The notes below the pieces were generated by a model. The model did no database searches. It saw only the letters and a list, made by a program, of their open reading frames with translations, and was not told the DNA's origin. Positions 23,687 through 58,410 of a stretch of DNA of 64,000 nt are shown one piece after another (positions within the stretch are counted from its first letter, which is position 1; each line of letters starts with the position of its first letter). The translations under genes and the position numbers were made by a program. This DNA is from Alphaproteobacteria bacterium (lineage in GTDB: Bacteria; Pseudomonadota; Alphaproteobacteria; UBA828), in assembly GCA_965214705.1 (NCBI GenBank), contig CBDCCI010000001.1, forward strand, positions 32,001 through 96,000. Direction: 5' to 3'.

Positions 23687-24014
23687 TTTCGGAAGAGTTT
23701 CTGGATTTTCATGTCAGCCAAACCTGTTTTCCCAACTGTCCAGGGGAACGAAGCGGCCCTCGTCCACAACGGTGTAATAGACCTTGAACGAAGCCGCTAC
23801 GCGGAGTTAGCGGCGTAGAGTTCATTCATTTCCGAGGCGTCGCGGGTGCCGTTTGTTCTGTGCGTTCGCTTCCCGGTTGCGTCAGTGGCGCTCCGCCCGT
23901 CGGGTGGCGGATCCCCAGCAGCCTCCCGATCACCAGTGGTTAGCATCGACCCCTGCGACGGACCGTCGCCGGATCGGTCCGGCGGCGCGCCGTCGCGATC
24001 CAGGGAGATCGATA

Positions 24015-24893
24015 ATGACCGGGACCGCGTGCGACACGAACACCGTCACCCCTCTTCGCCAGCGCATGGAGGAGCAGCTCCGCATCGCCAATCTGGCCGC
24101 GAGCACGTCCAAGGCCTACATCTGCGAGATCAAGAACCTGGCCAGGTACTACGACGCCTCGCCGGACGAGCTCGACGCCGAGCAGGTGCGCCAGTGGTAC
24201 CTGGGGCGGATCGACAAGGGGCTCAGTCCGGGCACGACCAACGTCTCCTTCGCCGCGCTGAACTTCCTCTACATCGACACACTCGGCTGGCCTGACCATG
24301 TCGCCGGCCTGCGCTCCCGCAAGAAGCCCGGCAAGCTGCCGCGCTACATGTCGGAGCAGGAGGTCGAGCACCTCATCCTTGCGACACCCGACCTCCGCCA
24401 CCGTGCTGCCATTGTCACCGGCTATGGCGGCGGGCTCCGCATCTCCGAGACCTTGGCCATCAAGGTCGGCGACATCCTGTCGGAGAAGAAGCTGCTGCAC
24501 ATCCCCTCCGGCAAAGGCGGCACCGAGAGAATGGCACCGTTGCCGGACATCGTCATCCACTACTTGCGCGTCTACTACAGGAACATCTGGCCGCGTCCGA
24601 CGAGCTGGCTCTTCTACGGCGTCTCGCTCGACAGGCCCATCGCAACGGAGACCTTGCAGGCCGCCTTCAGGAGGGCGCGCGACATTGCCGAGCTCGACCG
24701 CAGCTACACCTTCCATTGCCTGCGCCATTCGGCGGCGACCCATCTCCTCGAGCGCGGCGGCGATATCGAGGTGATCCGGGACATGCTCGGCCATCGAAGC
24801 GCGAACACGACCCGTCACTACGCCCGCGTCACCGGCAAGATGTTCGAGGGCCTCGACCACCCGATCTCAGGCTTCGCAGCGTTGCGCAACTGA
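24015..24893 (+). CDS. XerD-like tyrosine recombinase
   Basis: N-terminal SAM-like domain, GLRISE, GKGGTER, HCLRHSAATHLL, LGH...TTRHY; RBS GGGAG upstream. Confidence 0.92.
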   Translation: MTGTACDTNTVTPLRQRMEEQLRIANLAASTSKAYICEIKNLARYYDASPDELDAEQVRQWYLGRIDKGLSPGTTNVSFAALNFLYIDTLGWPDHVAGLRSRKKPGKLPRYMSEQEVEHLILATPDLRHRAAIVTGYGGGLRISETLAIKVGDILSEKKLLHIPSGKGGTERMAPLPDIVIHYLRVYYRNIWPRPTSWLFYGVSLDRPIATETLQAAFRRARDIAELDRSYTFHCLRHSAATHLLERGGDIEVIRDMLGHRSANTTRHYARVTGKMFEGLDHPISGFAALRN

Positions 24894-25196
24894 CGGCGCG
24901 TGGAGGCCGAACGCGCGGGCGTGGCGGAGATCTTCCGCCGCGCCGGCGCCGCTTTCCGTGAGCGCCACAAAGGGCGCATCGACGCCGCCCGGCTCAAGGT
25001 CATGGGCGCCATCGAGGCGTGCCGCACCGCCGTGCTCGGCGGCCACATGTACGCCTGCGAGGGCTGCGGGCGGGAGCATCCGCTCTTCAGATACCATGAG
25101 CACGGTGGCACCGAATCGATTCTGGCGGTTAGACAAGCTCGGAGAGAAGGCCAGCACCTTCTCTCCGAGCGGAATCGTCAACAACGGAGTGGACGG

Positions 25197-26393
25197 ATGT
25201 CGGATGGTCCAGACACGACCGCGCTGACAGGCGCAAGTAGTAGCACGATTTATGTCGCGGTGGAGATCAGCCTCAAATCGTGGATCGTTGGCGTGCATTG
25301 CCCGGATGCCTCGGGTGGCAGCATCAGCATCCACACACTGGCTGCTGCCGACACGGCGGGACTGTTGGATCTCGTCGGGTCGGTGCGGGAACGGGTGGCG
25401 AGGGAGCTCGGCGCCCGTCCTCGGGTGATGCTGACCTACGAGGCGGGCTACGAGGGGTTCTGGCTTGCCCGCGATATCGAGCGCCGTGACGCGGAGATCG
25501 ATATCTTCATGAACGATCCGGCGAGCCTGCGGGTGAACCGGCGCGCCAAGAAGAAAAAGACCGACCGTATCGACGCGAGGAGGATGGTTCGGGCTCTGAA
25601 GGCATGGGACCAAGGCGATTCGGAGGCCATGTCCTGGGTGCGCGTGCCCGATGTGGACCAGGAGGATGCCAAGCGCCTGCTGCGCGAGAGGGACACGCTG
25701 ATCAGCGAGCGTACCCGCGTCAACAACCGGATCAAAGGGCTCTTGCAGTTGCACGGCATCTTCGATCTGGCGCCGCGCAAGCCGGACTTCCTCGAACGCC
25801 TCGCGACCGCGCGGACGGGCTATGGGGCGCCGTTGCCGCCGCGTGCGCGGGCAGAGATTGAGAGGGCGGTGGGGATGCTTCGCCTGGTTGAGGAGCATAT
25901 CGAGATGATCGAGGCCGAGAAGAGGGCCCTGCTGAAGGCTGGCCGGAAAGCCCAGGACGCGACCAATCGTGACGGGACGGCGATGATCGCGGCGCTTACG
26001 CGCATCCATGGCATCGGCCTCAATGACGCCACACTGCTGGCTGGCGAGGTGTTCTATCGGGACTTCCGCAATCGCCGGGAGTTGGGCAGCTGGGCCGGGT
26101 TGACGTCGGTGCCGTGGGCGAGCGGAGATGTCGACCACGATCTTGGCATCAGCAAGGCCGGCCCCTCGCATGTCAGGAAGCACATGATCCAGATGGCTTG
26201 GCGCTGGCTGAAGCTGCAACCGGAAAGCGCGATCACGAAGTGGTTCCACGCCTACGTCGCCAGGGATGCCGGTGGCGGGAGGGACCGGCGAGCGAGGAAG
26301 CGGGCGATCGTGGGGGTCGCGCGCAAGCTGCTGATCGCGCTGTGGCGCTATGCCACCCAAGGACTGGTGCCTGAGGGCGCCATCGTCTCCTGA
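25197..26393 (+). CDS. IS110-family recombinase
   Basis: RuvC-like acidic motifs AVEIS, YEAG, KTDRIDA; C-terminal GIG, PWASG, ISKAG, AIVGVARKL. Confidence 0.92.
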   Translation: MSDGPDTTALTGASSSTIYVAVEISLKSWIVGVHCPDASGGSISIHTLAAADTAGLLDLVGSVRERVARELGARPRVMLTYEAGYEGFWLARDIERRDAEIDIFMNDPASLRVNRRAKKKKTDRIDARRMVRALKAWDQGDSEAMSWVRVPDVDQEDAKRLLRERDTLISERTRVNNRIKGLLQLHGIFDLAPRKPDFLERLATARTGYGAPLPPRARAEIERAVGMLRLVEEHIEMIEAEKRALLKAGRKAQDATNRDGTAMIAALTRIHGIGLNDATLLAGEVFYRDFRNRRELGSWAGLTSVPWASGDVDHDLGISKAGPSHVRKHMIQMAWRWLKLQPESAITKWFHAYVARDAGGGRDRRARKRAIVGVARKLLIALWRYATQGLVPEGAIVS

Positions 26394-26730
26394 GGGCACC
26401 GGCCGAACGAACGGGAAAATACAGGAGGTTCCGACGTGGTCGGACGCGGCCGCGGAGGATGCCGGGCAAGGCGTGTGACCGGGCAAGAGTTGGGTCGCCG
26501 CTTGGCACCGTTCTACAGATGGGTCCCGCCTCCCGGAACGTCACCACCGCTTGGATGCGGTATTGGGGTCACGGAGCCGGCAAGCGCCGGAGTTCCGAAC
26601 CGGATAAGAGCTGAGCAGCGTGGCGGATCGCTGCGTGGAAACGACGTTCTGCCTGGACATCGGCCGCGGATTCGAGTGGAGAGATTGCGAATGCCATTGA
26701 CGTAGATGAAGCCGGGCCTTGCGGAGAGAG
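26394..26730 (+). ncRNA. Candidate bridge/seek RNA region of the IS1111-type element
   Basis: ~340-nt non-coding 3' end, the position where IS1111 elements encode their guide RNA; boundaries unknown. Confidence 0.55.
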
Positions 26731-28053
26731 CTCATAAGAACTCCTGCCGCAACCGCCACTGCCCCACCTGCCAGGGTCTCGCCGCCAACCTCTGGAGCGA
26801 GGAGCGCGCCGGGGACATCCTGCCGGTGCCCTACTTCCATGTGGTCTTCACCCTGCCCAAGGAGGTTGCCGCCATTGCCTTCTGCAACCGCAGGGTGGTG
26901 TTCGACATCCTCTTCCGGGCCGTCGCCGAGACCCTGCGCACCATCGCCGCCGATCCCCGCCACGGCGGCATGCGCATCGGCGGCACCGCGGTCCTCCATA
27001 CCTGGGATCAGAAGCTCCGCTTCCACCCGCACCTGCACGTGGTCGTGCCCAACGCGGGCTTCGACGTAGACAGTGGCGAGTGGAAGACGGGGAGCACCAC
27101 CTTCCTCGCCCCCGTCAAGGTCCTCGGCAGCCTGTTCCGCCGCCTCTTCCTCGAGGAGCTCGCCCGCGCCCACGGCCGGGGGGACCTGGAGTTCCACGGC
27201 ACCGTCGCCCACCTCGCCAATCCCGGCGAGTTCCACGCCACGCTTGCCGCCGCCCGGGCCAGGGACTGGGTGGTCTACGCCAAGCGGCCCTTCCGCGGGC
27301 CTGAGCAGGTCTTCCGGTACCTCTCGCACTACACGCACAGGATCGCCATCTCCGACAGCCGCATCGTCTCCTTCGACGGCGAGACGGTCTCCTTCCGCCA
27401 CCGAAAGCCCAAGGCGCCGGGGCAGAGAAAGCCGCGCTACGGCATCGCCACCGTGAGCGCCGACGAGTTCATCCGCCGCTTCCTGAGGCACGTCCTGCCG
27501 GACGGCATGCACCGCATTCGCTACTTCGGCATCCTCGCCAACGGCTGCCGCGCCAGCACGCTGGAGAGAGCACGCCAGGCTCTCGGCGCCCTCGGCTGCG
27601 CCGCCCCCGAGGGAAGCGTGGACGGCGCTCGGGCCGAGCCCGACGAAGAGCCCGAGATCGGCACCGCGCCCGTGGCCTGCCCCCACTGCGGCGGCGTCAT
27701 GCGCCTCGTCCGCGAAATCCGCCGCCGCCATGAGCCCCGCTCGACGCGCGGCCCGCCGGCGCTGCCGCCGACCCACAGGGGGAAACCGTGAGACGCCCGC
27801 TCGCTTCGGCCCCGCGCAACGGCGCCAAAGCGCCGACGCACGACCGAACCTGTCTCCGCTTGAGCCGGGCTGACAGCCCTCGGCTCACACCCCGCTCAGT
27901 CCTCGCAGCGTGCGCCCGCATGCCTGCCGAAAGACCGGCGCGAGCGTCGATTTTATGCGCAACTCTGCTGCCGGTGGATGCCGCCTGACGCTGACATCAG
28001 CGCACTTTCCACATAGCTCAACTTCGCCTCTCGTGGCCCGCGGCTTCGTTCAA

Positions 28054-28095
28054 AAGGGTTGGGCAGGCTCTCGAGAGAGAGCCTGCCCAACCCTT
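28054..28095. repeat. Perfect 19-bp terminal hairpin of the Int/IS91 element, copy 1
   Basis: AAGGGTTGGGCAGGCTCTC-GAGA-GAGAGCCTGCCCAACCCTT. Confidence 0.95.
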
Positions 28096-28098
28096 AAC

Positions 28099-30190
28099 CC
28101 GAACTTCCGTTAGCATCTGATTGCCGATCTGGCCGGATTTTGCCTGTTTCCGCCCTTTCTGCGCAGTTTAGCGCCCGGTTTGGCGCGAAATTCCCGAAAT
28201 GATCGCCGAAACCGCCGCGATTCGGCGCTCCAGCGCTGGATCACGCCGTCCCGGCGCATCCACCAAAACCTGAATACTAGTCAGTAGATAGTTTTCTCGT
28301 TACGATAATTGCTCCGCATTCCCAAGCCTTTCCGATATGATTGCCGCGATTCGCTAGGCAGATCGATATGCACATCGAAACCACCCGGTCCGGAAACTCC
28401 CGCTGCCACCTCCTCAGACAGTCCTACTGGCAGGACGGAAAACCCAAGAAGCGCACCCTGTGCAACCTCTCCGCCCTCCCGGAACACGCCATCGAAGCCC
28501 TCAAACGCGCCCTCAAGCGCGGACCCGCCCTCAATCCCGACAGCGCCGACGTCGAACTGCGCGCCAGCCGGGCGCACGGCGCCGTCAGCGCCGTTCTCGG
28601 CACCCTTCGCGACATCGGCCTCGACCGCGTCATCTTCCACCGGCCCGATCGCCGCAGGGCCCTCGTCATCGCCATGATCGTCGCCCGCCTGATCCGGCCC
28701 GGCGCCAAGCTGCGCGTCGAGCGCGAACTGGGAGCGGCCGGCACAACCACCCTCGCCGCCCTGCTCGGCGTCGAAGGCGTCAGCGTCGACGAACTCTACG
28801 CCGCCATGGACTGGCTGGGCGCGCGACAGGGCGCGATCGAGCGCAAGCTCGCCCGGCGCCATCTCGGAGAGGACGATCTCGTCCTCTACGACGTGTCCTC
28901 GAGCTACATGGAGGGCAACGCCTGCCCCATGGCGAAGCGCGGCTATTCGAGGGATCGCCGGGGCGACCGCCCGCAGATCGTCTACGGCCTCCTCTGCACC
29001 CGCGATGGCTGTCCGGTCTCGATCGAGGCCTTCGCCGGCAACACCGGCGACCCGATGACTCTGGCCAGCCAGGTGCGCAAGGTCCGCGACAGCTTCGGCA
29101 TCCGGCGGGTGGTGTTGGTGGGGGACCGCGGCATGATCGCGCAGACCCGCATCGACCGCGACCTCGCGCCCAACGGCATCGACTGGATCACGGCGCTGCG
29201 CGCATCCTCGATCCGCAAGCTCGTCGACCGGGGGCATGTCACGCCCGGCCTGTTCGACACCTGGGGCCTCGCGCGGGTGACCACGCCGGACTATCCCGGC
29301 GAGAGGCTGATCGTCTGCTACAACCCGGTTCTGGCGGCCGAGCGCAAGCGCAACCGCGACGGGCTGCTCAATGCGACCGAGACGGACGCGCGCGATTTCG
29401 CCGCGCGCCACGCCGCCGGCGACATCGACCGCGACGAGTTGAACCGTCGGCTGGGAACCTTGCGCCGCCGCAAGATGGCCAAGCACTTCCGCTTCGAATT
29501 CGACGAGGGCAGCGGCACCTTCAGTTGCGAACGCGACCGGGCGTCGATCGACGCCGAGGCCGCCCTCGACGGTCTCTACGTCATACGCACCAACGTGGAC
29601 GAGGACGAGATCGAGGACGTCGAGGCGGTCCGCGTCTACAAGAGCCTGTCACGCGTCGAGCGCGCCTTCCGCTCGCTCAAGACGGTGTCGTTGCGGATCC
29701 GCCCGATCTTCCACTGGCGCGACGACCGAGTACGGGCGCATCTTCTGATCTGCATGCTGGCTTGGTATGTCGAGTGGCACATGCGCCGCAGGCTGGCGCC
29801 GCTGCTGTTCGCCGAGGAGGACGGAGCGCCGCTGTCCGCGAACCCGGTGGCGCCGCCGGAACGCTCGGAAAAGGCCCGGCGCAAGGACAAGCGCCGAAAG
29901 ACGGATGATGGACTTGCGGTGTGCGACTTCCGCGATCTCCTCGGCCATCTCGGCACGCTTGCTGCCACTGAGATCGCCACCGGAACCGACTTCGCCGTGC
30001 CCGCCCTGACCAAGCCGACCGAACTGCAGGAAAGGGCGTTCGCATTGCTCGGGCTGCGGCCCCATCCTGCGCCCGCGCTCACCGAAAAGGGGATGACCAC
30101 CGCCAAACCTGTCCAGTAATCGTCGCTTCGAAACTCGCCGAAACCCCTGCCGCACAACGGTTCTTTGACTATCCCACACTGGAAGTTCGG
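28099..30190 (+). mobile_element. IS1634-family element B (2092 bp)
   Basis: IRs CCGAACTTCC / GGAAGTTCGG; 6-bp TSD CTTAAC at 28093-28098 and 30191-30196. Confidence 0.9.
28368..30119 (+). CDS. IS1634-family DDE transposase
   Basis: LYDVSSSY, GYSRD, VGDRGM, VERAFRSLK...IRPIFH. Confidence 0.9.
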   Translation: MHIETTRSGNSRCHLLRQSYWQDGKPKKRTLCNLSALPEHAIEALKRALKRGPALNPDSADVELRASRAHGAVSAVLGTLRDIGLDRVIFHRPDRRRALVIAMIVARLIRPGAKLRVERELGAAGTTTLAALLGVEGVSVDELYAAMDWLGARQGAIERKLARRHLGEDDLVLYDVSSSYMEGNACPMAKRGYSRDRRGDRPQIVYGLLCTRDGCPVSIEAFAGNTGDPMTLASQVRKVRDSFGIRRVVLVGDRGMIAQTRIDRDLAPNGIDWITALRASSIRKLVDRGHVTPGLFDTWGLARVTTPDYPGERLIVCYNPVLAAERKRNRDGLLNATETDARDFAARHAAGDIDRDELNRRLGTLRRRKMAKHFRFEFDEGSGTFSCERDRASIDAEAALDGLYVIRTNVDEDEIEDVEAVRVYKSLSRVERAFRSLKTVSLRIRPIFHWRDDRVRAHLLICMLAWYVEWHMRRRLAPLLFAEEDGAPLSANPVAPPERSEKARRKDKRRKTDDGLAVCDFRDLLGHLGTLAATEIATGTDFAVPALTKPTELQERAFALLGLRPHPAPALTEKGMTTAKPVQ

Positions 30191-31764
30191 CTTAACCTTC
30201 TGCAAGCCCTGGCGGCGCTCCGGCCCGAACGAGACCAGCTCGCCGATTCCCAAATCGAAATCCCTTATGCTGAAGACGGCCTCCTCCAGCGCACTTCTAT
30301 CCGGCTTGTCGCCAAGACGATCCAATATCTCGACCATCAGCTTGGCGTTGAGGAAGCCCTCCAGACTGACGAAGCTGTGCGAGAAGGGCGTGTAATCCTC
30401 TCTCAGCAATTCCTGCGGTGGCTGAGGATCGTATCGCGCCATCAACTCCTGGTACTGCTGGACAGCAGGAATCCCCACGTCGTGATAGCTAGGAACAACC
30501 TGCGAGTTCACCAGCAGCTCGGTGTAGCGCTCGCCATCGTCACGCCCTTGCGTGATGAGATTGAGAAGGTTCTCGCTGCCGACGAAGGACACGTTGGCGA
30601 TCGGCACGCGCAACCCGAGGTCCACCGCGTCGCGGAGAAACGCGGCGCAGGCGGCGTAGGCCCCGATGCAGATGACCGCATCGGGGCGCGATGCCTTCAG
30701 TATCTCCACCTGATCGCGCATGATGCCCGTGAATTTGGAGCCCCGCCTGTAGGTCGCCTCGCCGACGATCCGCTCGCCGAACGGTCTCAAGGCACGGCGC
30801 ACGCCCGCCCAACCACTGCGGCCGTAAGCGTCAGCCTGATAGAAGACTGCGATGCGCTTGCGGCCGATCCCGACGAAGTTCTGAACCAAGCCGGCCGTCT
30901 CTTGCCGGTAGGAGGCGCGCAAATTGAAGGCGAAGGGGCCGTATGGCGGCTCCCGCTGCGGCTGGGCGCCGGTGAACGGGAAGAAGAGATAGACCTGTCT
31001 CTCCTGAAACTTCTTGAGCATGGGAAGGACGCGCGTGACCGTCGGCGTCCCGACATAGCCGAACAGGGCGAAGACCTCGTCTTCCAGCATCAGGGTCATC
31101 GTGTTCTGAACCGACGGATCGGGCTGATAGCCGTCGTCATAGGTCCTGAGAACGATTCTTCGGCCCCTGACGCCACCGTTGCGGTTGACGTGCTCGAAAT
31201 AGGCACTGGCCCCGCGGAAGAGCTCTATGCCGAGACCGCGGGAAGGACCGGAGAACGCGGCGGACGTGCCCAGCACGATCTCGCTGTCGGTCATGCCGCC
31301 GCGCCGGATGGACGCCAACCAAGACCCAACAGGCAACCGGCAAGGCCGTACCGAAGGACGCTTCTCCTCGTCGGCGACCTCATTCGAGGTATGTCCATCC
31401 CTCCTCGCCTATGCGGCATGCCCGAAGAGTGGCTTCCGGCCTCGCTTCACGATGGCAAGGGCGACTCCTTGGGGTGCTCGTCCTCTAACTCCGCCTCGTC
31501 CTCGGTCGCGTCGTCCTCGGTCTGCTGAGGCGGTTGCGCGGCCAGCGTGACGATCATTTCGGTGAACACGCCGACTTCGGACTCCACCCTGATTTCGCCG
31601 CCGTGCTGGCGGACGATATCGCTTGAGAGCGCGAGGCCCAGGCCGGTGCCCTGGTCCGGCGGCTTGGTCGTGAAGAAAGGGTTGAAGATGTCGTCGATGA
31701 TTTCGGGTGGGATCCCGCTCCCGTTGTCTCTGATCCGGATTTCGACCCCTTCTTCGGATCGCCG

Positions 31765-42039: not shown

Positions 42040-42891
42040 TCAGTCGGCAGCGCGCCTGCCGCCGAACGCCCCGGCGATGCCGTCGCGTTCGAAAATGCCG
42101 CCAACCTCCTCCTCGTTGGGGCCATAGAACCGACCCGAGATGGTATCGTCGAGGGCGTTGCGCTGGGCGAAGCCGCCCTCCTCGACCGCCATGCCGCGCC
42201 AGGTCATGTCGTCCCGCCGTTCGCCGGTCTCGGTATTGGCGATATCGGTGAATTCGACATCGGCCGTCACGGCGCCCGTTCCGAACTCCACCGTCACGTC
42301 GGCATCGCCCCGGATCACCTGGCCGCGGCTGGGCGAGGCGCTCATGTCGCGGCCGAGCATCAGGCCTTCCCAGCGGGCCGAGCCCTCGGCAGCGCGGGGA
42401 TTCTCCCCCGTCGAAAAGCCGAACGAATAGCTCAATGCCACCGTCGCGCCCTGGTCTGGGAAGCGGTCGCTCTTGAGAAAGGCGGATTCCGTGGCGAACA
42501 GGCTGTGGTCGAGCCAGCCGCCGTACACATGGGCGTCCACGTTATCGGTCGATGCTTCCTCCACGACCAGGCTTGCGCCGCGGCGCTCACCGAGCAAGTT
42601 CAGCTCTGCGATACCAACGGTTGCTTCGCTCGACCGGAAGAACCGCGTGAACGCGGCCGCACAGGTATCGTCCAGGCACCTGACGCCCACCCGCTCCACC
42701 GTGTCGTCGGTTCCGAGATAGCCGAGATGATCGCCCATCAGGAACGTATTGGCGCCGCTCGCGATCCTTGCATAGGAGGCCCGCGCCAATTCATCTGCCG
42801 TCGGCGGCGGTGACTCGGAGGAGCCGGTACAGGCCGCCAGTGCCAGCGTGACCGCAGACGCCGCCAACGCGATCGAGAACCCTCTTCTCAT
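42040..42891 (-). CDS. Lipoprotein with C-terminal TbpB-like barrel
   Basis: LAAC; GSARWEG...GRFYGPNEEEVGGIF...GAFGG. Confidence 0.75.
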   Translation of the reverse strand: MRRGFSIALAASAVTLALAACTGSSESPPPTADELARASYARIASGANTFLMGDHLGYLGTDDTVERVGVRCLDDTCAAAFTRFFRSSEATVGIAELNLLGERRGASLVVEEASTDNVDAHVYGGWLDHSLFATESAFLKSDRFPDQGATVALSYSFGFSTGENPRAAEGSARWEGLMLGRDMSASPSRGQVIRGDADVTVEFGTGAVTADVEFTDIANTETGERRDDMTWRGMAVEEGGFAQRNALDDTISGRFYGPNEEEVGGIFERDGIAGAFGGRRAAD

Positions 42892-42947
42892 TGGACCCTC
42901 TCCGGGATATTCCGGCGCCGGCGGGGACGGAAACGGGATGCAACGGG

Positions 42948-43787
42948 TCATGGCGCGGACGTCCGCCGCCCGCCGAACGCGCCCGCGATGCCGTCGCGCT
43001 CGAACACGCCCCCGACCTCCTCCTCACCGGGTCCGTAAAACCGACCCGAGACGGTGTCGTCGGGGGCGTTCCGCCGGGCGAAGCCGCCATCTTCCACAAC
43101 CATGCCGCGCCAAGCCATGTCGTTCTGCGCAGCGCCGGTCTCGATGTTGACGATGTCGGTGAACGCGACATCCGCCGTGATCGCGGCCGCTCCGAATTCG
43201 ACCGTCACGTCGGCGTCTCCCCGGATCACCTGGCCGCGGCTGGCGGATGCGCGCAGGTCGCGGCCGAGCATCAGGCCTTCCCAGCGGGCCGAGCCCTCGG
43301 CGCTGGGGTTCTCCCCGGTCGAAATGCCGAGCGAGTAGCTGGAGATGACCGACGCCCCCTGGCTGGGGCCGGCTTCGTCGGTGAACCGGGCTAGCCGGGT
43401 GCCGAAGAGGCTGTGCTCGAGCCACCCGCCATAGGCCTCGTAGCCGCGGTCGGTCCCCGATCTTTCCTGGCGAACCAGGGACACGCCGCGGCGCGGGCGA
43501 AGCAGCGTCAACTCCGAGTCCTCGACGCCGAAGTTGCTCGCCCCGCTCAGAGATATGAATCCGGCCGCGCAGGTGTCGCCCCGACAGGTTGTCTTGGTCC
43601 GTTCCACCGCGTCGTCCGTTGCGAAATAGCCGAGCCGATCGCCCATGAGCAGCGTGTTCGCGTCGCTCACGATCGCGCCGTGCGTCTCCCGCGCCTGCTC
43701 TTCTGCCGTCGGAGGATCGAGCGTGCGGGTACAGGCCGCGAGTGCTACCGCGCCCGCCAGCACCGCGATCGTGAGTCCTGTCCTCAT
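42948..43787 (-). CDS. Lipoprotein with C-terminal TbpB-like barrel (close paralog of 42040-42891)
   Basis: LAAC; near-identical C-terminal half. Confidence 0.75.
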   Translation of the reverse strand: MRTGLTIAVLAGAVALAACTRTLDPPTAEEQARETHGAIVSDANTLLMGDRLGYFATDDAVERTKTTCRGDTCAAGFISLSGASNFGVEDSELTLLRPRRGVSLVRQERSGTDRGYEAYGGWLEHSLFGTRLARFTDEAGPSQGASVISSYSLGISTGENPSAEGSARWEGLMLGRDLRASASRGQVIRGDADVTVEFGAAAITADVAFTDIVNIETGAAQNDMAWRGMVVEDGGFARRNAPDDTVSGRFYGPGEEEVGGVFERDGIAGAFGGRRTSAP

Positions 43788-54427: not shown

Positions 54428-55405
54428 GGCTGGTCTCCTCCGCCTGCAGCTCCCGCCCGTAGCGCGCTGCCCGACTCCGCCGGGGCGCAACTATAGTGCG
54501 TGCCGGCCGCTGCGGACAATCGACCCCGCGCCCGACGAGAGCGTTTCCATTTCATACGGAAACGCTCTCGCGATTTGTCGCTCACGGCAGCCGGCCTACG
54601 GCCGGAGCCTCCGCGAGGGCGCCGCTGACGCGGCGGGCCGCGGTCGCGGCCTGTCGCGTATCCGTCAAAGACGGACACGCTCTAATGCGCACTCGCTCGC
54701 ACCGTCGCGCCGGGAAGGCGGTCCCGATCGTGAGGGCGCGTGAAGTCGAGCACAGGCCCCTTGGGAACGATGCGGGAGGGATTCACACTGACGTGGCTCC
54801 CGTAATAGTGGCCCTTGATGTGCGCCATGTTCACCGTGTCCGCGACCCCTGGATACTGGTAAAGCTCCCGCAGGTAGTTGCTCAGATTGGGATAGTCCTC
54901 GATCCGGCGCTTGTTGCACTTGAAGTGCCCGACATAGACGGCGTCGAAGCGCACCAGGGTGGGGAAGAGCCGCCAGTCGGCCTCGGTGATGCTCGCGCCA
55001 GCCAGATAGCGATGCGCGCCCAGTCTCTCTTCCAGGTCGTCCAGGGTCGCGAAGAGTGCGTCGAAAGCGTCCTCGTAAGCCGCCTGCGACCGGGAAAGGT
55101 TAAGGGTTGGGCAGGCTCTCTCTCGAGAGCCTGCCCAACCCTTTTGAACGAAGCCGCGGGCCACGAGAGGCGAAGTTGAGCTATGTGGAAAGTGCGCTGA
55201 TGTCAGCGTCAGGCGGCATCCACCGGCAGCAGAGTTGCGCATAAAATCGACGCTCGCGCCGGTCTTTCGGCAGGCATGCGGGCGCACGCTGCGAGGACTG
55301 AGCGGGGTGTGAGCCGAGGGCTGTCAGCCCGGCTCAAGCGGAGACAGGTTCGGTCGTGCGTCGGCGCTTTGGCGCCGTTGCGCGGGGCCGAAGCGAGCGG
55401 GCGTC

Positions 55406-56647
55406 TCACGGTTTCCCCCTGTGGGTCGGCGGCAGCGCCGGCGGGCCGCGCGTCGAGCGGGGCTCATGGCGGCGGCGGATTTCGCGGACGAGGCGCATGA
55501 CGCCGCCGCAGTGGGGGCAGGCCACGGGCGCGGTGCCGATCTCGGGCTCTTCGTCGGGCTCGGCCCGAGCGCCGTCCACGCTTCCCTCGGGGGCGGCGCA
55601 GCCGAGGGCGCCGAGAGCCTGGCGTGCTCTCTCCAGCGTGCTGGCGCGGCAGCCGTTGGCGAGGATGCCGAAGTAGCGAATGCGGTGCATGCCGTCCGGC
55701 AGGACGTGCCTCAGGAAGCGGCGGATGAACTCGTCGGCGCTCACGGTGGCGATGCCGTAGCGCGGCTTTCTCTGCCCCGGCGCCTTGGGCTTTCGGTGGC
55801 GGAAGGAGACCGTCTCGCCGTCGAAGGAGACGATGCGGCTGTCGGAGATGGCGATCCTGTGCGTGTAGTGCGAGAGGTACCGGAAGACCTGCTCAGGCCC
55901 GCGGAAGGGCCGCTTGGCGTAGACCACCCAGTCCCTGGCCCGGGCGGCGGCAAGCGTGGCGTGGAACTCGCCGGGATTGGCGAGGTGGGCGAGGGTGCCG
56001 TGGAACTCCAGGTCCCCCCGGCCGTGGGCGCGGGCGAGCTCCTCGAGGAAGAGGCGGCGGAACAGGCTGCCGAGGACCTTGACGGGGGCGAGGAAGGTGG
56101 TGCTCCCCGTCTTCCACTCGCCACTGTCTACGTCGAAGCCCGCGTTGGGCACGACCACGTGCAGGTGCGGGTGGAAGCGGAGCTTCTGATCCCAGGTATG
56201 GAGGACCGCGGTGCCGCCGATGCGCATGCCGCCGTGGCGGGGATCGGCGGCGATGGTGCGCAGGGTCTCGGCGACGGCCCGGAAGAGGATGTCGAACACC
56301 ACCCTGCGGTTGCAGAAGGCAATGGCGGCAACCTCCTTGGGCAGGGTGAAGACCACATGGAAGTAGGGCACCGGCAGGATGTCCCCGGCGCGCTCCTCGC
56401 TCCAGAGGTTGGCGGCGAGACCCTGGCAGGTGGGGCAGTGGCGGTTGCGGCAGGAGTTGAAGAGCGGATGCTCGCGCCCGCAGCCCTCGCAGGCGTACAT
56501 GTGGCCGCCGAGCACGGCGGTGCGGCACGCCTCGATGGCGCCCATGACCTTGAGCCGGGCGGCGTCGATGCGCCCTTTGTGGCGCTCACGGAAAGCGGCG
56601 CCGGCGCGGCGGAAGATCTCCGCCACGCCCGCGCGTTCGGCCTCCAC
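55406..56647 (-). CDS. IS91-family (Y2 HUH) transposase with Zn-binding domain
   Basis: NSCRNRHCPTCQ, HVVFTLP, HTW...HPHLH (HUH), YLSHY (YxxxY), RIRYFG. Confidence 0.93.
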   Translation of the reverse strand: MEAERAGVAEIFRRAGAAFRERHKGRIDAARLKVMGAIEACRTAVLGGHMYACEGCGREHPLFNSCRNRHCPTCQGLAANLWSEERAGDILPVPYFHVVFTLPKEVAAIAFCNRRVVFDILFRAVAETLRTIAADPRHGGMRIGGTAVLHTWDQKLRFHPHLHVVVPNAGFDVDSGEWKTGSTTFLAPVKVLGSLFRRLFLEELARAHGRGDLEFHGTLAHLANPGEFHATLAAARARDWVVYAKRPFRGPEQVFRYLSHYTHRIAISDSRIVSFDGETVSFRHRKPKAPGQRKPRYGIATVSADEFIRRFLRHVLPDGMHRIRYFGILANGCRASTLERARQALGALGCAAPEGSVDGARAEPDEEPEIGTAPVACPHCGGVMRLVREIRRRHEPRSTRGPPALPPTHRGKP

Positions 56648-56653
56648 GCGCCG

Positions 56654-57532
56654 TCAGTTGCGCAACGCTGCGAAGCCTGAGATCGGGTGGTCGAGGCCCT
56701 CGAACATCTTGCCGGTGACGCGGGCGTAGTGACGGGTCGTGTTCGCGCTTCGATGGCCGAGCATGTCCCGGATCACCTCGATATCGCCGCCGCGCTCGAG
56801 GAGATGGGTCGCCGCCGAATGGCGCAGGCAATGGAAGGTGTAGCTGCGGTCGAGCTCGGCAATGTCGCGCGCCCTCCTGAAGGCGGCCTGCAAGGTCTCC
56901 GTTGCGATGGGCCTGTCGAGCGAGACGCCGTAGAAGAGCCAGCTCGTCGGACGCGGCCAGATGTTCCTGTAGTAGACGCGCAAGTAGTGGATGACGATGT
57001 CCGGCAACGGTGCCATTCTCTCGGTGCCGCCTTTGCCGGAGGGGATGTGCAGCAGCTTCTTCTCCGACAGGATGTCGCCGACCTTGATGGCCAAGGTCTC
57101 GGAGATGCGGAGCCCGCCGCCATAGCCGGTGACAATGGCAGCACGGTGGCGGAGGTCGGGTGTCGCAAGGATGAGGTGCTCGACCTCCTGCTCCGACATG
57201 TAGCGCGGCAGCTTGCCGGGCTTCTTGCGGGAGCGCAGGCCGGCGACATGGTCAGGCCAGCCGAGTGTGTCGATGTAGAGGAAGTTCAGCGCGGCGAAGG
57301 AGACGTTGGTCGTGCCCGGACTGAGCCCCTTGTCGATCCGCCCCAGGTACCACTGGCGCACCTGCTCGGCGTCGAGCTCGTCCGGCGAGGCGTCGTAGTA
57401 CCTGGCCAGGTTCTTGATCTCGCAGATGTAGGCCTTGGACGTGCTCGCGGCCAGATTGGCGATGCGGAGCTGCTCCTCCATGCGCTGGCGAAGAGGGGTG
57501 ACGGTGTTCGTGTCGCACGCGGTCCCGGTCAT
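56654..57532 (-). CDS. XerD-like tyrosine recombinase
   Basis: Protein identical to 24015-24893. Confidence 0.92.
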   Translation of the reverse strand: MTGTACDTNTVTPLRQRMEEQLRIANLAASTSKAYICEIKNLARYYDASPDELDAEQVRQWYLGRIDKGLSPGTTNVSFAALNFLYIDTLGWPDHVAGLRSRKKPGKLPRYMSEQEVEHLILATPDLRHRAAIVTGYGGGLRISETLAIKVGDILSEKKLLHIPSGKGGTERMAPLPDIVIHYLRVYYRNIWPRPTSWLFYGVSLDRPIATETLQAAFRRARDIAELDRSYTFHCLRHSAATHLLERGGDIEVIRDMLGHRSANTTRHYARVTGKMFEGLDHPISGFAALRN

Positions 57533-58410
57533 TATCGATCTCCCTGGATCGCGACGGCGCGCCGCCGGACCGATCCGGCGACGGTCCGTCGCAGGGGTCG
57601 ATGCTAACCACTGGTGATCGGGAGGCTGCTGGGGATCCGCCACCCGACGGGCGGAGCGCCACTGACGCAACCGGGAAGCGAACGCACAGAACAAACGGCA
57701 CCCGCGACGCCTCGGAAATGAATGAACTCTACGCCGCTAACTCCGCGTAGCGGCTTCGTTCAAAGCCGGTCTTGTAGACGCCATTGTTGACGTGCTCGTA
57801 GATCGGCTCGTTGACCGCATCGATCTCGTCCCTGAGCGCCGCTGGGTACAAGTCCGGCTCGCCGTCGCCCCAGCCATTGAACGCCGTGTTGAGCATCCGA
57901 ATGATTTCGGCGGATTCGTTGTTGACTATGGTTCGCTCCCGCTTGTCCCAGAGCACGGGCACCGAGACCCGCCCCGTGTAGTCGTCCCGCGCCAGCTTGT
58001 AGACCTCCCGCAGAAACCGGGTGCCGTTGACGCTGTCGGGGATGCAGCCGGGGCCCTCGCTGAAGTGCCAACCGTCCTCACCCATGTAGGGGTCCACCAC
58101 CGAGACCGAGATCGCATCTTCGAGCCTGCACAGCGCGCGCACGATCATCGTCCGGTGCGCCCAAGGGCAGGCGTGCGAGACGTAGAGGTGGTAGCGCCCC
58201 GGCTCGGCCTTGAAGCCTGAGGAGCCGTCGGCGGTGACGGCGTTGCGGAAGGAGGTCGTGGCTCGCACGAAGCGCCCATCGGCTTCAGTCCTGTTGTCCT
58301 CCTTGTGCCACTCGCCGTCGATCATCGTGCCCATAGGTCGGTCTCCGGATACATGTGATTGCTTGAGATGGTGGGGTGGATGGCGCCCGGCCCGCGCGGT
58401 TGCTGCGCGC

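Follow-up and report, generated by a model that had tools for sequence, protein, structure and literature searches.

The 64,000-nucleotide (nt) stretch of contig CBDCCI010000001.1 analyzed here, which comes from an alphaproteobacterium of lineage UBA828 and is referred to below as the window, contains two copies of a 2666-bp insertion sequence (IS). The element encodes a tyrosine recombinase (Int) followed by an IS91-family transposase of the Y2 HUH type, and it is bounded by asymmetric inverted repeats (IRs) and hairpins. An earlier note on the window had described both copies and had proposed a distinct class of rolling-circle transposon that targets TT and has ends like those of eukaryotic Helentrons. 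We have followed the element through its genome and its relatives and have compared its ends and targets with those of classical IS91 elements, Helitron2 and integrons. Copy 1 lies on the minus strand with the following features:

55098..57763, minus strand: the whole of copy 1 (2666 bp), with the consensus sequence of 61 uninterrupted genomic copies
57750..57763, minus strand: left terminal inverted repeat TTGAACGAAGCCGC, made up of TT plus a GAAC module like that of the classical terIS
57733..57754, minus strand: left-end hairpin with a 7-bp stem (GCCGCTA/TAGCGGC) that overlaps the inner part of the IR
56654..57532, minus strand: tyrosine recombinase gene, 292 amino acids from the ATG at 57532 (frame open from 57694), with Phage_integrase and Phage_int_SAM_4 domains, Xer/IntI-like
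55406..56647, minus strand: IS91-family Y2 HUH transposase gene, 413 amino acids, with conserved HPHLH and Y-x3-Y motifs
55144..55157, minus strand: right subterminal inverted repeat GCGGCTTCGTTCAA, 46 nt in from the right end
55102..55143, minus strand: perfect 19-bp hairpin with the 4-nt loop GAGA (TCTC in 7 of the 61 genomic copies)
55098..55101, minus strand: 4-nt tail AACC, the terminal bases of the element, which form a bulge in the folded joined ends
55091..55097, minus strand: right flank of copy 1 contributed by the target, reading TTTCCCG on the strand of the element, in agreement with the TT..CG consensus

The ends are asymmetric, as had been read from the window: the left-terminal 14-mer is the perfect complement of a copy 46 nt inside the right end, and this inner arm is followed by the 19-bp stem and by AACC. 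In the window copy, a gap of 6 nt separates the Int stop codon from the transposase start. Copy 2 lies on the opposite strand, in the company of two other ISs:

23784..28099, plus strand: element copy 2, split at element position 1306 by a 1650-bp insert
25090..26738, plus strand: IS110-family element (DEDD_Tnp_IS110 and Transposase_20) inside the copy-2 transposase gene, boundaries within 1 nt
28100..30197, plus strand: IS4-like element (DDE_Tnp_1) at the very end of copy 2, including the second copy of a 7-bp duplication, CTTAACC (30191-30197)

The element sequence of copy 2 consists of 23784-25089 and 26739-28099, which sum to 2666 bp. Direct comparison with copy 1 gave two substitutions, at element positions 1290 and 1771, in agreement with the number first reported. 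The range given earlier for copy 2, 23784-30197, does hold the element, but not as a contiguous copy: the IS110-family insert splits it, and the range extended to 30197 because the IS4-like element adjoins its right end. When the two empty sites rebuilt beforehand (GGCT^TTTCC and GACC^TTCTG) are closed up, the host genes read through in frame, over 325 and at least 403 amino acids.

An integrase-bearing clade of the IS91 family

Pfam and NCBIfam profiles confirmed that the element combines an integrase with an IS91-type Y2 transposase. The transposase scored 184 bits on Y2_Tnp, 104 bits on the N-terminal zinc-binding domain Zn_Tnp_IS91 and 382 bits on the IS91 equivalog NF033538, for which the cut-off is 125. 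It is 24% identical to the IS91 TnpA, with HPHLH aligned to HPHIH and Y-LSH-Y to Y-FGS-Y; no solved structure matching it was found. The Int protein scored 144 bits on XerA, 134 on XerC and 130 on the integron integrase profile TIGR02249, all below cut-off, and the last of these scores was reached in two stretches against a cut-off of 265. Its best solved relatives are XerA, XerD and IntI4, the match to IntI4 (2a3v) being split in two. A Pfam domain search of both element proteins disclosed no helicase domain.

Recombinases associated with IS91 elements have been placed in an "Integron-like" subgroup and described as the closest homologues of IntI, lacking its extra helices; integrase-bearing IS91 elements are already in print (Smyshlyaev et al. 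preprint). The present element has the same gene pair in the same order as such members, and its Int likewise has no IntI insertion. ISAzo26, ISMno23, ISSod25 and ISWz1 in ISfinder are IS91-family elements with an upstream tyrosine recombinase. The proposal of a distinct class was not borne out, given the NF033538 score, the terIS-like module at the left end and the published integrase-bearing elements. The element is a member of an integrase-bearing clade of the IS91 family and not a new class. A literature search that left ISfinder and supplementary files aside found no account of the ends, crossover or target of such elements, and on the role of the recombinase it found only the bare statement that some IS91 elements carry one.

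A scan of species genomes yielded 80 related loci, mostly from Alphaproteobacteria, with transposases 46-78% identical. Int lies directly upstream of the transposase gene and in the same orientation in 75 of these, and the other five are at contig ends or interrupted. Ends were compared in 14 families (type 1) that were chosen and not drawn at random: the main family, two relatives of about 80% identity in the same genome, and 11 loci with both ends anchored. In every one of these families the terminal 14-mer agrees with its subterminal arm at no fewer than 11 positions, and in seven families at all 14; four IR substitutions, found in three families, are each mirrored in both arms. The right IR arm is followed in 14/14 families by a stem-loop of unrelated sequence (z -1.7 to -9.2) and then by a tail of 4-9 nt. 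The right flank starts with TT in all 13 families other than the main one, and also in 5/5 copies belonging to a 2658-bp family. The earlier note had put forward IR and hairpin conservation as something to check; together with the flanking TT, it extends across all 14 type-1 families. The 7-bp left hairpin fared differently: it is present as described in the window, but what the relatives keep is a shorter xCCGC-n3-4-GCGGx, which covaries (GCCGC/GCGGC, ACCGC/GCGGT and GCTGC/GCAGC).

An exact-match scan of the 80 loci showed a terminal/subterminal IR in about 21, as judged by eye; the remaining loci had no flank, had imperfect IRs that were found later by copy comparison, or gave chance matches. 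More distant relatives with transposases of at most 50% identity (type 2) keep the IR and hairpin, with other termini and no TT. Their boundaries are provisional, with a left end of GAACGAACCCGC, a tail of CCCTC(A/T)ACA, and a left flank of CAA-N or GCA-NN. Loci L053, L058, L074, L090, L092, L094, L097, L100 and L105 are distant Int-plus-IS91 relatives with left flanks and tails of this kind. Some flanks of the distant relatives resemble inverted repeats (ATGTC...GACAT), which hints that these may insert into structured repeats.

Classical members of the family insert with oriIS beside 5'-CTTG/GTTC, their terIS cleavage site (CTCG/GTTC) adjoins a palindrome, the T at position 2 of the target is reported to be constant, and Orf121, encoded upstream of IS91 tnpA, affects terIS recognition (PMC13181058). 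Three plasmid copies of classical members were examined (IS91, IS1294-like and IS801-like). These start with CGAG or GAAC, have a GC-rich palindrome 3-4 nt further on, and are flanked on the right by CAAG or GAAC. The left end of our element reads as TT plus GAAC-GAA-GCCGC..GCGG, like the IS1294-like and IS801-like copies, and its right flank is TT and then GnnC. It further shares with the family the HUH motif and the two tyrosines of the transposase, the absence of a target duplication, a single fixed orientation in which the target motif abuts the end downstream of the transposase gene and is repeated at the start of the opposite end, subterminal palindromes on either side, and the arrangement of a small upstream open reading frame in an operon. 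Several features set it apart. The upstream gene encodes a tyrosine recombinase instead of Orf121, the junction is 2 nt outside GAAC (^TTGAAC, as against the classical GTTC^), and the target is YY^TTGnnCG (CGnnCAA^ on the equivalent strand) and not 5'-CTTG/GTTC. In addition, the 14-nt terminal/subterminal IR and the long perfect 3' hairpin were not seen in the three classical copies: a scan for terminal/subterminal IRs gave 15 nt in our element and only matches of 9-11 nt, off the termini, in the three. Judged against these three copies, the Int-bearing clade has therefore added three features to the classical ends: TT, a long IR and a large perfect hairpin.

The ends also recall those of the eukaryotic Helitron2 elements. 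According to Bao & Jurka (2013), the 5' asymmetric terminal inverted repeat (ATIR) of Helitron2 is located 0-2 bp from an end that begins with T and is part of a 5' hairpin, the 3' ATIR is located 20-30 bp from its end just upstream of a 3' hairpin, and insertion occurs after runs of T. Helitron targets are AT or TT (Craig). Set against the first of these descriptions, the likeness claimed in the earlier note is accurate feature by feature: the element encodes a Y2 Rep and inserts at TT, its first base is T, and of its ATIRs the 5' one overlaps a hairpin while the 3' one is followed by another. It differs in its bacterial host, its tyrosine recombinase, the position of its 3' ATIR 46 nt from the end (20-30 nt in Helitron2) and its want of a helicase (no RepHel, the fusion of a Y2 Rep to a Pif1-like helicase). 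A direct kinship, in which this architecture was inherited in common with Helitron2/Helentrons, would account for the point-by-point match of the ATIRs, both hairpins, the 5' T and the TT insertion, but we consider it very improbable. There is no helicase domain, the transposases of Helitrons and IS91 are reported to cluster separately, each independently linked to plasmid Reps, and the architecture is missing from the three classical IS91 members, so it would have arisen in one bacterial clade that also gained Int. For these reasons the likeness is read as structural, and as convergence.

Genomic copies, insertion junction and target

The genome, comprising three contigs with a total length of 7.92 Mb and a GC content of 67%, was searched for further copies. 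At more than 94% identity it contains 94 left and 91 right element ends, of which 87 pair up. Uninterrupted copies of exactly 2666 bp number 61; 57 of them are within 6 nt of the consensus, seven (including window copy 1) are identical to it, and both open reading frames are open in all 61. Copies are scattered over all three contigs, in genes and in other ISs, with no attI/Pc platform context; one is nested inside another at element position 336, and two form a head-to-tail tandem pair. The recent activity supposed in the earlier note is borne out by these numbers, and it is nearly certain that the element is an autonomous member of the integrase-bearing clade that has recently expanded to about 90 copies. 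A 12-mer search allowing at most one mismatch revealed no non-autonomous derivatives among the matches listed: 159 of 345 matches fell outside known copies, and most of those listed look like chance, the genuine ones being ends of interrupted copies or of relatives at about 80% identity.

A near-identical element occurs in contigs of public sequencing runs from 12 studies under about 11 organism labels (X1-X19), where it has other flanks and the same IS110 insertion. Over the element, the contig depth in these runs is roughly 3 to 100 times the flank depth. Either the host strain or the element itself would therefore seem to be common among sequencing projects.

Insertion adds 2666 bp and nothing else, because the joined flanks occur uninterrupted at paralogous sites. 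Of the 75 unique sites, 12 have their joined 20+20-nt flanks intact at another place in the genome, and looser matching gave paralogous empty sites for 36. Among 80 unique flanks outside ISs, 66 have TT directly after the right end, compared with about 2.7% expected at 67% GC, and this association is far beyond chance. The alignment of flanks from all genomic copies, which had been proposed beforehand, together with the intact joined flanks and the restored host genes, upholds the original claim that insertion takes place just 5' of a TT without duplication. As TT is found at the start of the element as well as in the right flank, a cut on either side of it would be conceivable, and the remaining sites decide the matter. 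Their right flanks are AT (6), CT (5) and GA (3), at copies whose left end mostly stays TT. AT and CT flanks are target-derived at 3/3 such sites having a paralogous empty site, and the nested copy had entered CTAC^ATCTG, a target known in its intact form. These non-TT sites therefore define the unit as TTGAAC...AACC, which enters just 5' of (T/A/C)T. As an irregular case, both sides of one old copy read AT. A unit GAAC...AACCTT inserting after TT was tried and rejected as the main rule, as 14/80 right flanks are AT, CT or GA while the left end keeps its TT.

A target logo was built on the 75 unique rebuilt sites and gave the consensus YY^TTGnnCG(G), preceded by an A-rich patch at -9 to -7. 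On the right the preferred bases are T at +1 (62/75), T at +2 (72/75), G at +3 (40/75), C at +6 (57/75), G at +7 (45/75) and G at +8 (36/75), so that this half mimics the first seven bases of the element. Position -1 is C in 36, T in 26 and G in 2 of the 75 sites, and A was found in 26, 36 and 35 sites at -9, -8 and -7, respectively (p down to 3e-10). The footprint covers about -13 to +8, or about 18 nt. Left and right flanks were compared site by site with spacers of 4-8 nt and showed no complementarity, for which reason the target is not regarded as a hairpin; a weak CGnnCAA-N6-TTGnnCG symmetry exists only at the level of composition (C at -13 and G at -12, each p = 0.006, uncorrected). Against the GC skew of the genome, which is weak and scrambled, the orientation of the element shows no bias: its sense strand is the G-rich one in 37 of 87 copies (p = 0.2).

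Several copies carry other elements at recurrent positions. An IS110-family element is located at the identical site, element nt 1306, in at least 13 copies, with composite lengths of 4316 (nine), 7076 (three) and others, and this shared position may reflect either site-specific homing or spread of the composite. An IS4-like (DDE_Tnp_1) element directly follows the last element base at 8/91 right ends, five in one orientation and three in the other, and one relative of about 80% identity (C3:3029313) also has an IS4-like element at its own right end. Four copies (C1:790114-796900, C3:1608237-1616530, C1:4037210-4038504 and C3:2982884-2984178) have a break at element nt 1293-1295, only 11 nt away from the IS110 site, which marks a second hot spot; two of these breaks display a 3-nt overlap around inserts of 4.1 kb and 5.6 kb. 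Unrelated to the element, the window also contains diverged 300-nt direct-repeat pairs at 42053-43263 (82%) and 1004-2536 (74%).

Integron-like ends and a proposed division of labor between two enzymes

Integron recombination uses a core of G^TTRRRY and an inverse core of RYYYAAC, with crossover 5' of TT. Joining the ends of the element gives GTTCAA-hairpin-AACC^TTGAAC, in which 6/7 positions fit each box, the first core base being C and not G. As in an integron cassette, the left TTGAAC fits TTRRRY, the right GTTCAA fits RYYYAA and is followed by a hairpin, a tail and the target TT, and the crossover lies directly 5' of TT with no duplication. For the joined ends, DNA parameters give a fold of -48 kcal/mol in which a 14-bp stem stacks on the 19-bp hairpin and the cut site falls at a 4-nt bulge. 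At the tandem junction (C2:646560-646640) a GGTT insertion fills this bulge and the loop is flipped, producing a perfect palindrome. The loop is inverted from GAGA to TCTC at element nt 2640-2643 (equivalent to window 55121-55124) in 7/61 copies, and this flip-flop suggests that the hairpin forms in vivo. Unlike a cassette, the element carries its own recombinase and a HUH transposase, with no attI/Pc platform, and its Int has no IntI extra domain and scores below the integron-integrase cut-offs; the predicted stems are also longer than those of attC (14 + 19 bp) and have a single 4-nt bulge.

The double-stranded genomic attG sites of IntI1 have G^WT at -1 to +2, to which hotspots add CRGM at +6 to +9; a minimal site comprises 9+9 nt, cleavage is confined to the bottom strand and no strand bias is seen (Loot et al. 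preprint). The target of our element is likewise degenerate and is similar in its T/W at +1, T at +2, C-G-G at +6 to +8 and its span of about 18 nt; against the weak GC skew of this genome, no strand bias was detectable. On sequence grounds, the joined ends may be likened to an attC site with its crossover immediately 5' of TT, and the target to an attG site.

Our preferred model, held at about even confidence, has a single-strand circle copied out by the HUH transposase and then inserted by the recombinase, which would act on the folded joined ends; which enzyme would cut where is inferred. Tyrosine recombinases form a 3'-phosphotyrosine intermediate and HUH enzymes a 5'-phosphotyrosine. The Y2 HUH transposase would nick one strand at an element end and peel off a single-strand copy by rolling-circle replication, so that the donor copy would stay in place. 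In the joined ends, the 14-nt terminal repeat would pair with its subterminal copy and stack on the 19-bp hairpin to form an attC-like site with a 4-nt bulge. The IntI-like recombinase would then exchange one strand between this folded site and double-stranded YY^TTGnnCG, with a cut exactly where the TTGAAC box begins, in the manner of integron integrases at G^TT. Replication would complete the insertion without a duplication, leaving the element TT on the left and the target TT on the right.

Three pointers favor the IntI-like recombinase for the insertion step at least as strongly as they favor HUH cutting at TT. The crossover lies 5' of TT in TTGAAC, 2 nt from the classical GTTC^ and at the same position as in the integron G^TTRRRY; the target footprint of about 18 nt resembles IntI1 attG sites; and the long IR is absent from the three Int-less classical members examined. 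Pasting by the recombinase is further supported by the reported closeness of IS91-associated recombinases to IntI, by the retention of Int directly upstream in 75/80 relatives, by the 14-nt IR with its mirrored substitutions in 14/14 type-1 families, by the stability of the joined-end fold and by the palindrome-perfecting GGTT at the tandem junction. The preference for C or T at -1 (62/75, against G in 2/75) would suit pairing with the element GG on the swapped strand.

Several observations weigh against this model. On the side of the enzymes, Int has no IntI-specific insertion, and its integron-integrase score is no better than its Xer scores (130 versus 134-144 bits). The model also requires that the HUH enzyme nicks at the very position of the Int crossover, or else that Int trims the product. 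On the side of the target, position -1 is C/T and not the G of attG and attI. The last two target nt match the element tail only as a trend (GA in 9/13 single examples from families with GA or TA tails), and the match fails in the 5-copy CBDCYR family, whose targets end in GG, TG, CA, CA and CA. Some junctions are irregular and are not accounted for by the model: two copies that have no private substitutions in common start with CT and have TT on the right, at targets CTGAA(C/T), two others carry an additional TT and an additional T, respectively, and three copies without a right TT (C1:714993, C1:2111538 and C3:1746624) are found at YY^GAA(G/A)(G/C)CG(G/A), a motif that resembles element nt 7-14 rather than nt 1-7. 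No circle-junction or empty-site joints are reported in four public runs, although these consist of contigs only and provide no evidence either way.

The behavior of other elements with a Y2 enzyme bears on the same question. For the transposition of classical IS91, TnpA is sufficient, and that element too has its target motif repeated at its start (PMC13181058); the TT rule could therefore arise from a change in HUH specificity, with no part for Int. Helitron2 has the same end architecture and TT target with a Y2 Rep only (Bao & Jurka 2013).

The main rival, which we would rate somewhat below an even chance, is that the Y2 transposase performs both the donor cleavages and the transfer to the target strand, as in IS91, IS801 and IS1294, its motif having shifted to ...CAA^ on the transferred strand. 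Int would then be an accessory that resolves tandem or cointegrate products at the joined ends, or that aids end recognition as Orf121 does for terIS (PMC13181058). Such a scheme keeps the logic of the family (a motif copy at the start, no duplication, fixed orientation and palindromes at both ends), the left end with its GAAC, 3 nt and GC palindrome is built as in the classical terIS, and the head-to-tail tandem is a typical rolling-circle by-product and a substrate for a resolvase. The Y2 Rep of Helitron2 makes use of ATIRs, hairpins and a TT target on its own (Bao & Jurka 2013). The scheme accounts less well for a junction 2 nt off GTTC^ and without the position-2 T reported to be constant in IS91 targets, and for target information that reaches +8 and -9, beyond the tetranucleotide of the family. 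It likewise leaves aside the confinement of the long IR to the Int-bearing clade among the members examined, and the retention of Int in 75/80 relatives across transposase identities of 46-78%.

The roles could also be distributed the other way, with Int excising the element (left x right junction) and integrating it, and the HUH protein acting as a plasmid-type Rep that amplifies the circle from the hairpin. After insertion, the right end and its flank do re-form a complete IR-hairpin-TTGnnC site, the hairpin loop occurs in both orientations (7/61 flipped), and IS91 transposases are related to the Reps of rolling-circle plasmids (Wawrzyniak et al.). We nevertheless hold this to be improbable: the retention of about 90 copies suits copying out better than cutting out, no empty-site joint appears in the contigs of other samples (weak evidence), the classical family needs no excision step, and no separate double-strand origin is recognizable.

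The copy-out and paste-in model leads to a broader reading, which is offered tentatively. The element would be a division-of-labor transposon, in which the HUH enzyme makes single-strand circles and an IntI-like recombinase inserts them through an attC-like junction at minimal TT-core sites; it would amount to a "self-replicating integron cassette" with its own integrase. With about 90 near-identical copies and 75 unique rebuilt sites, the material is sufficient for a nucleotide-exact junction and a target logo. Its end anatomy and logo connect the element with integron recombination and its transposase connects it with rolling-circle transposition, and the two-enzyme mechanism is concrete and directly testable. 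The element inserts across ordinary genes with only a TT-core motif. One-ended read-through is known for IS91 and ISCR elements. If the reading is true, the clade would be a living link between IS91-type elements and the integron system and, combined with such read-through, would offer a route to generating gene-plus-attC cassettes. It would then bear on the origin of integron integrases and of attC-bounded cassettes, as well as on the source of single-strand recombinase substrates.

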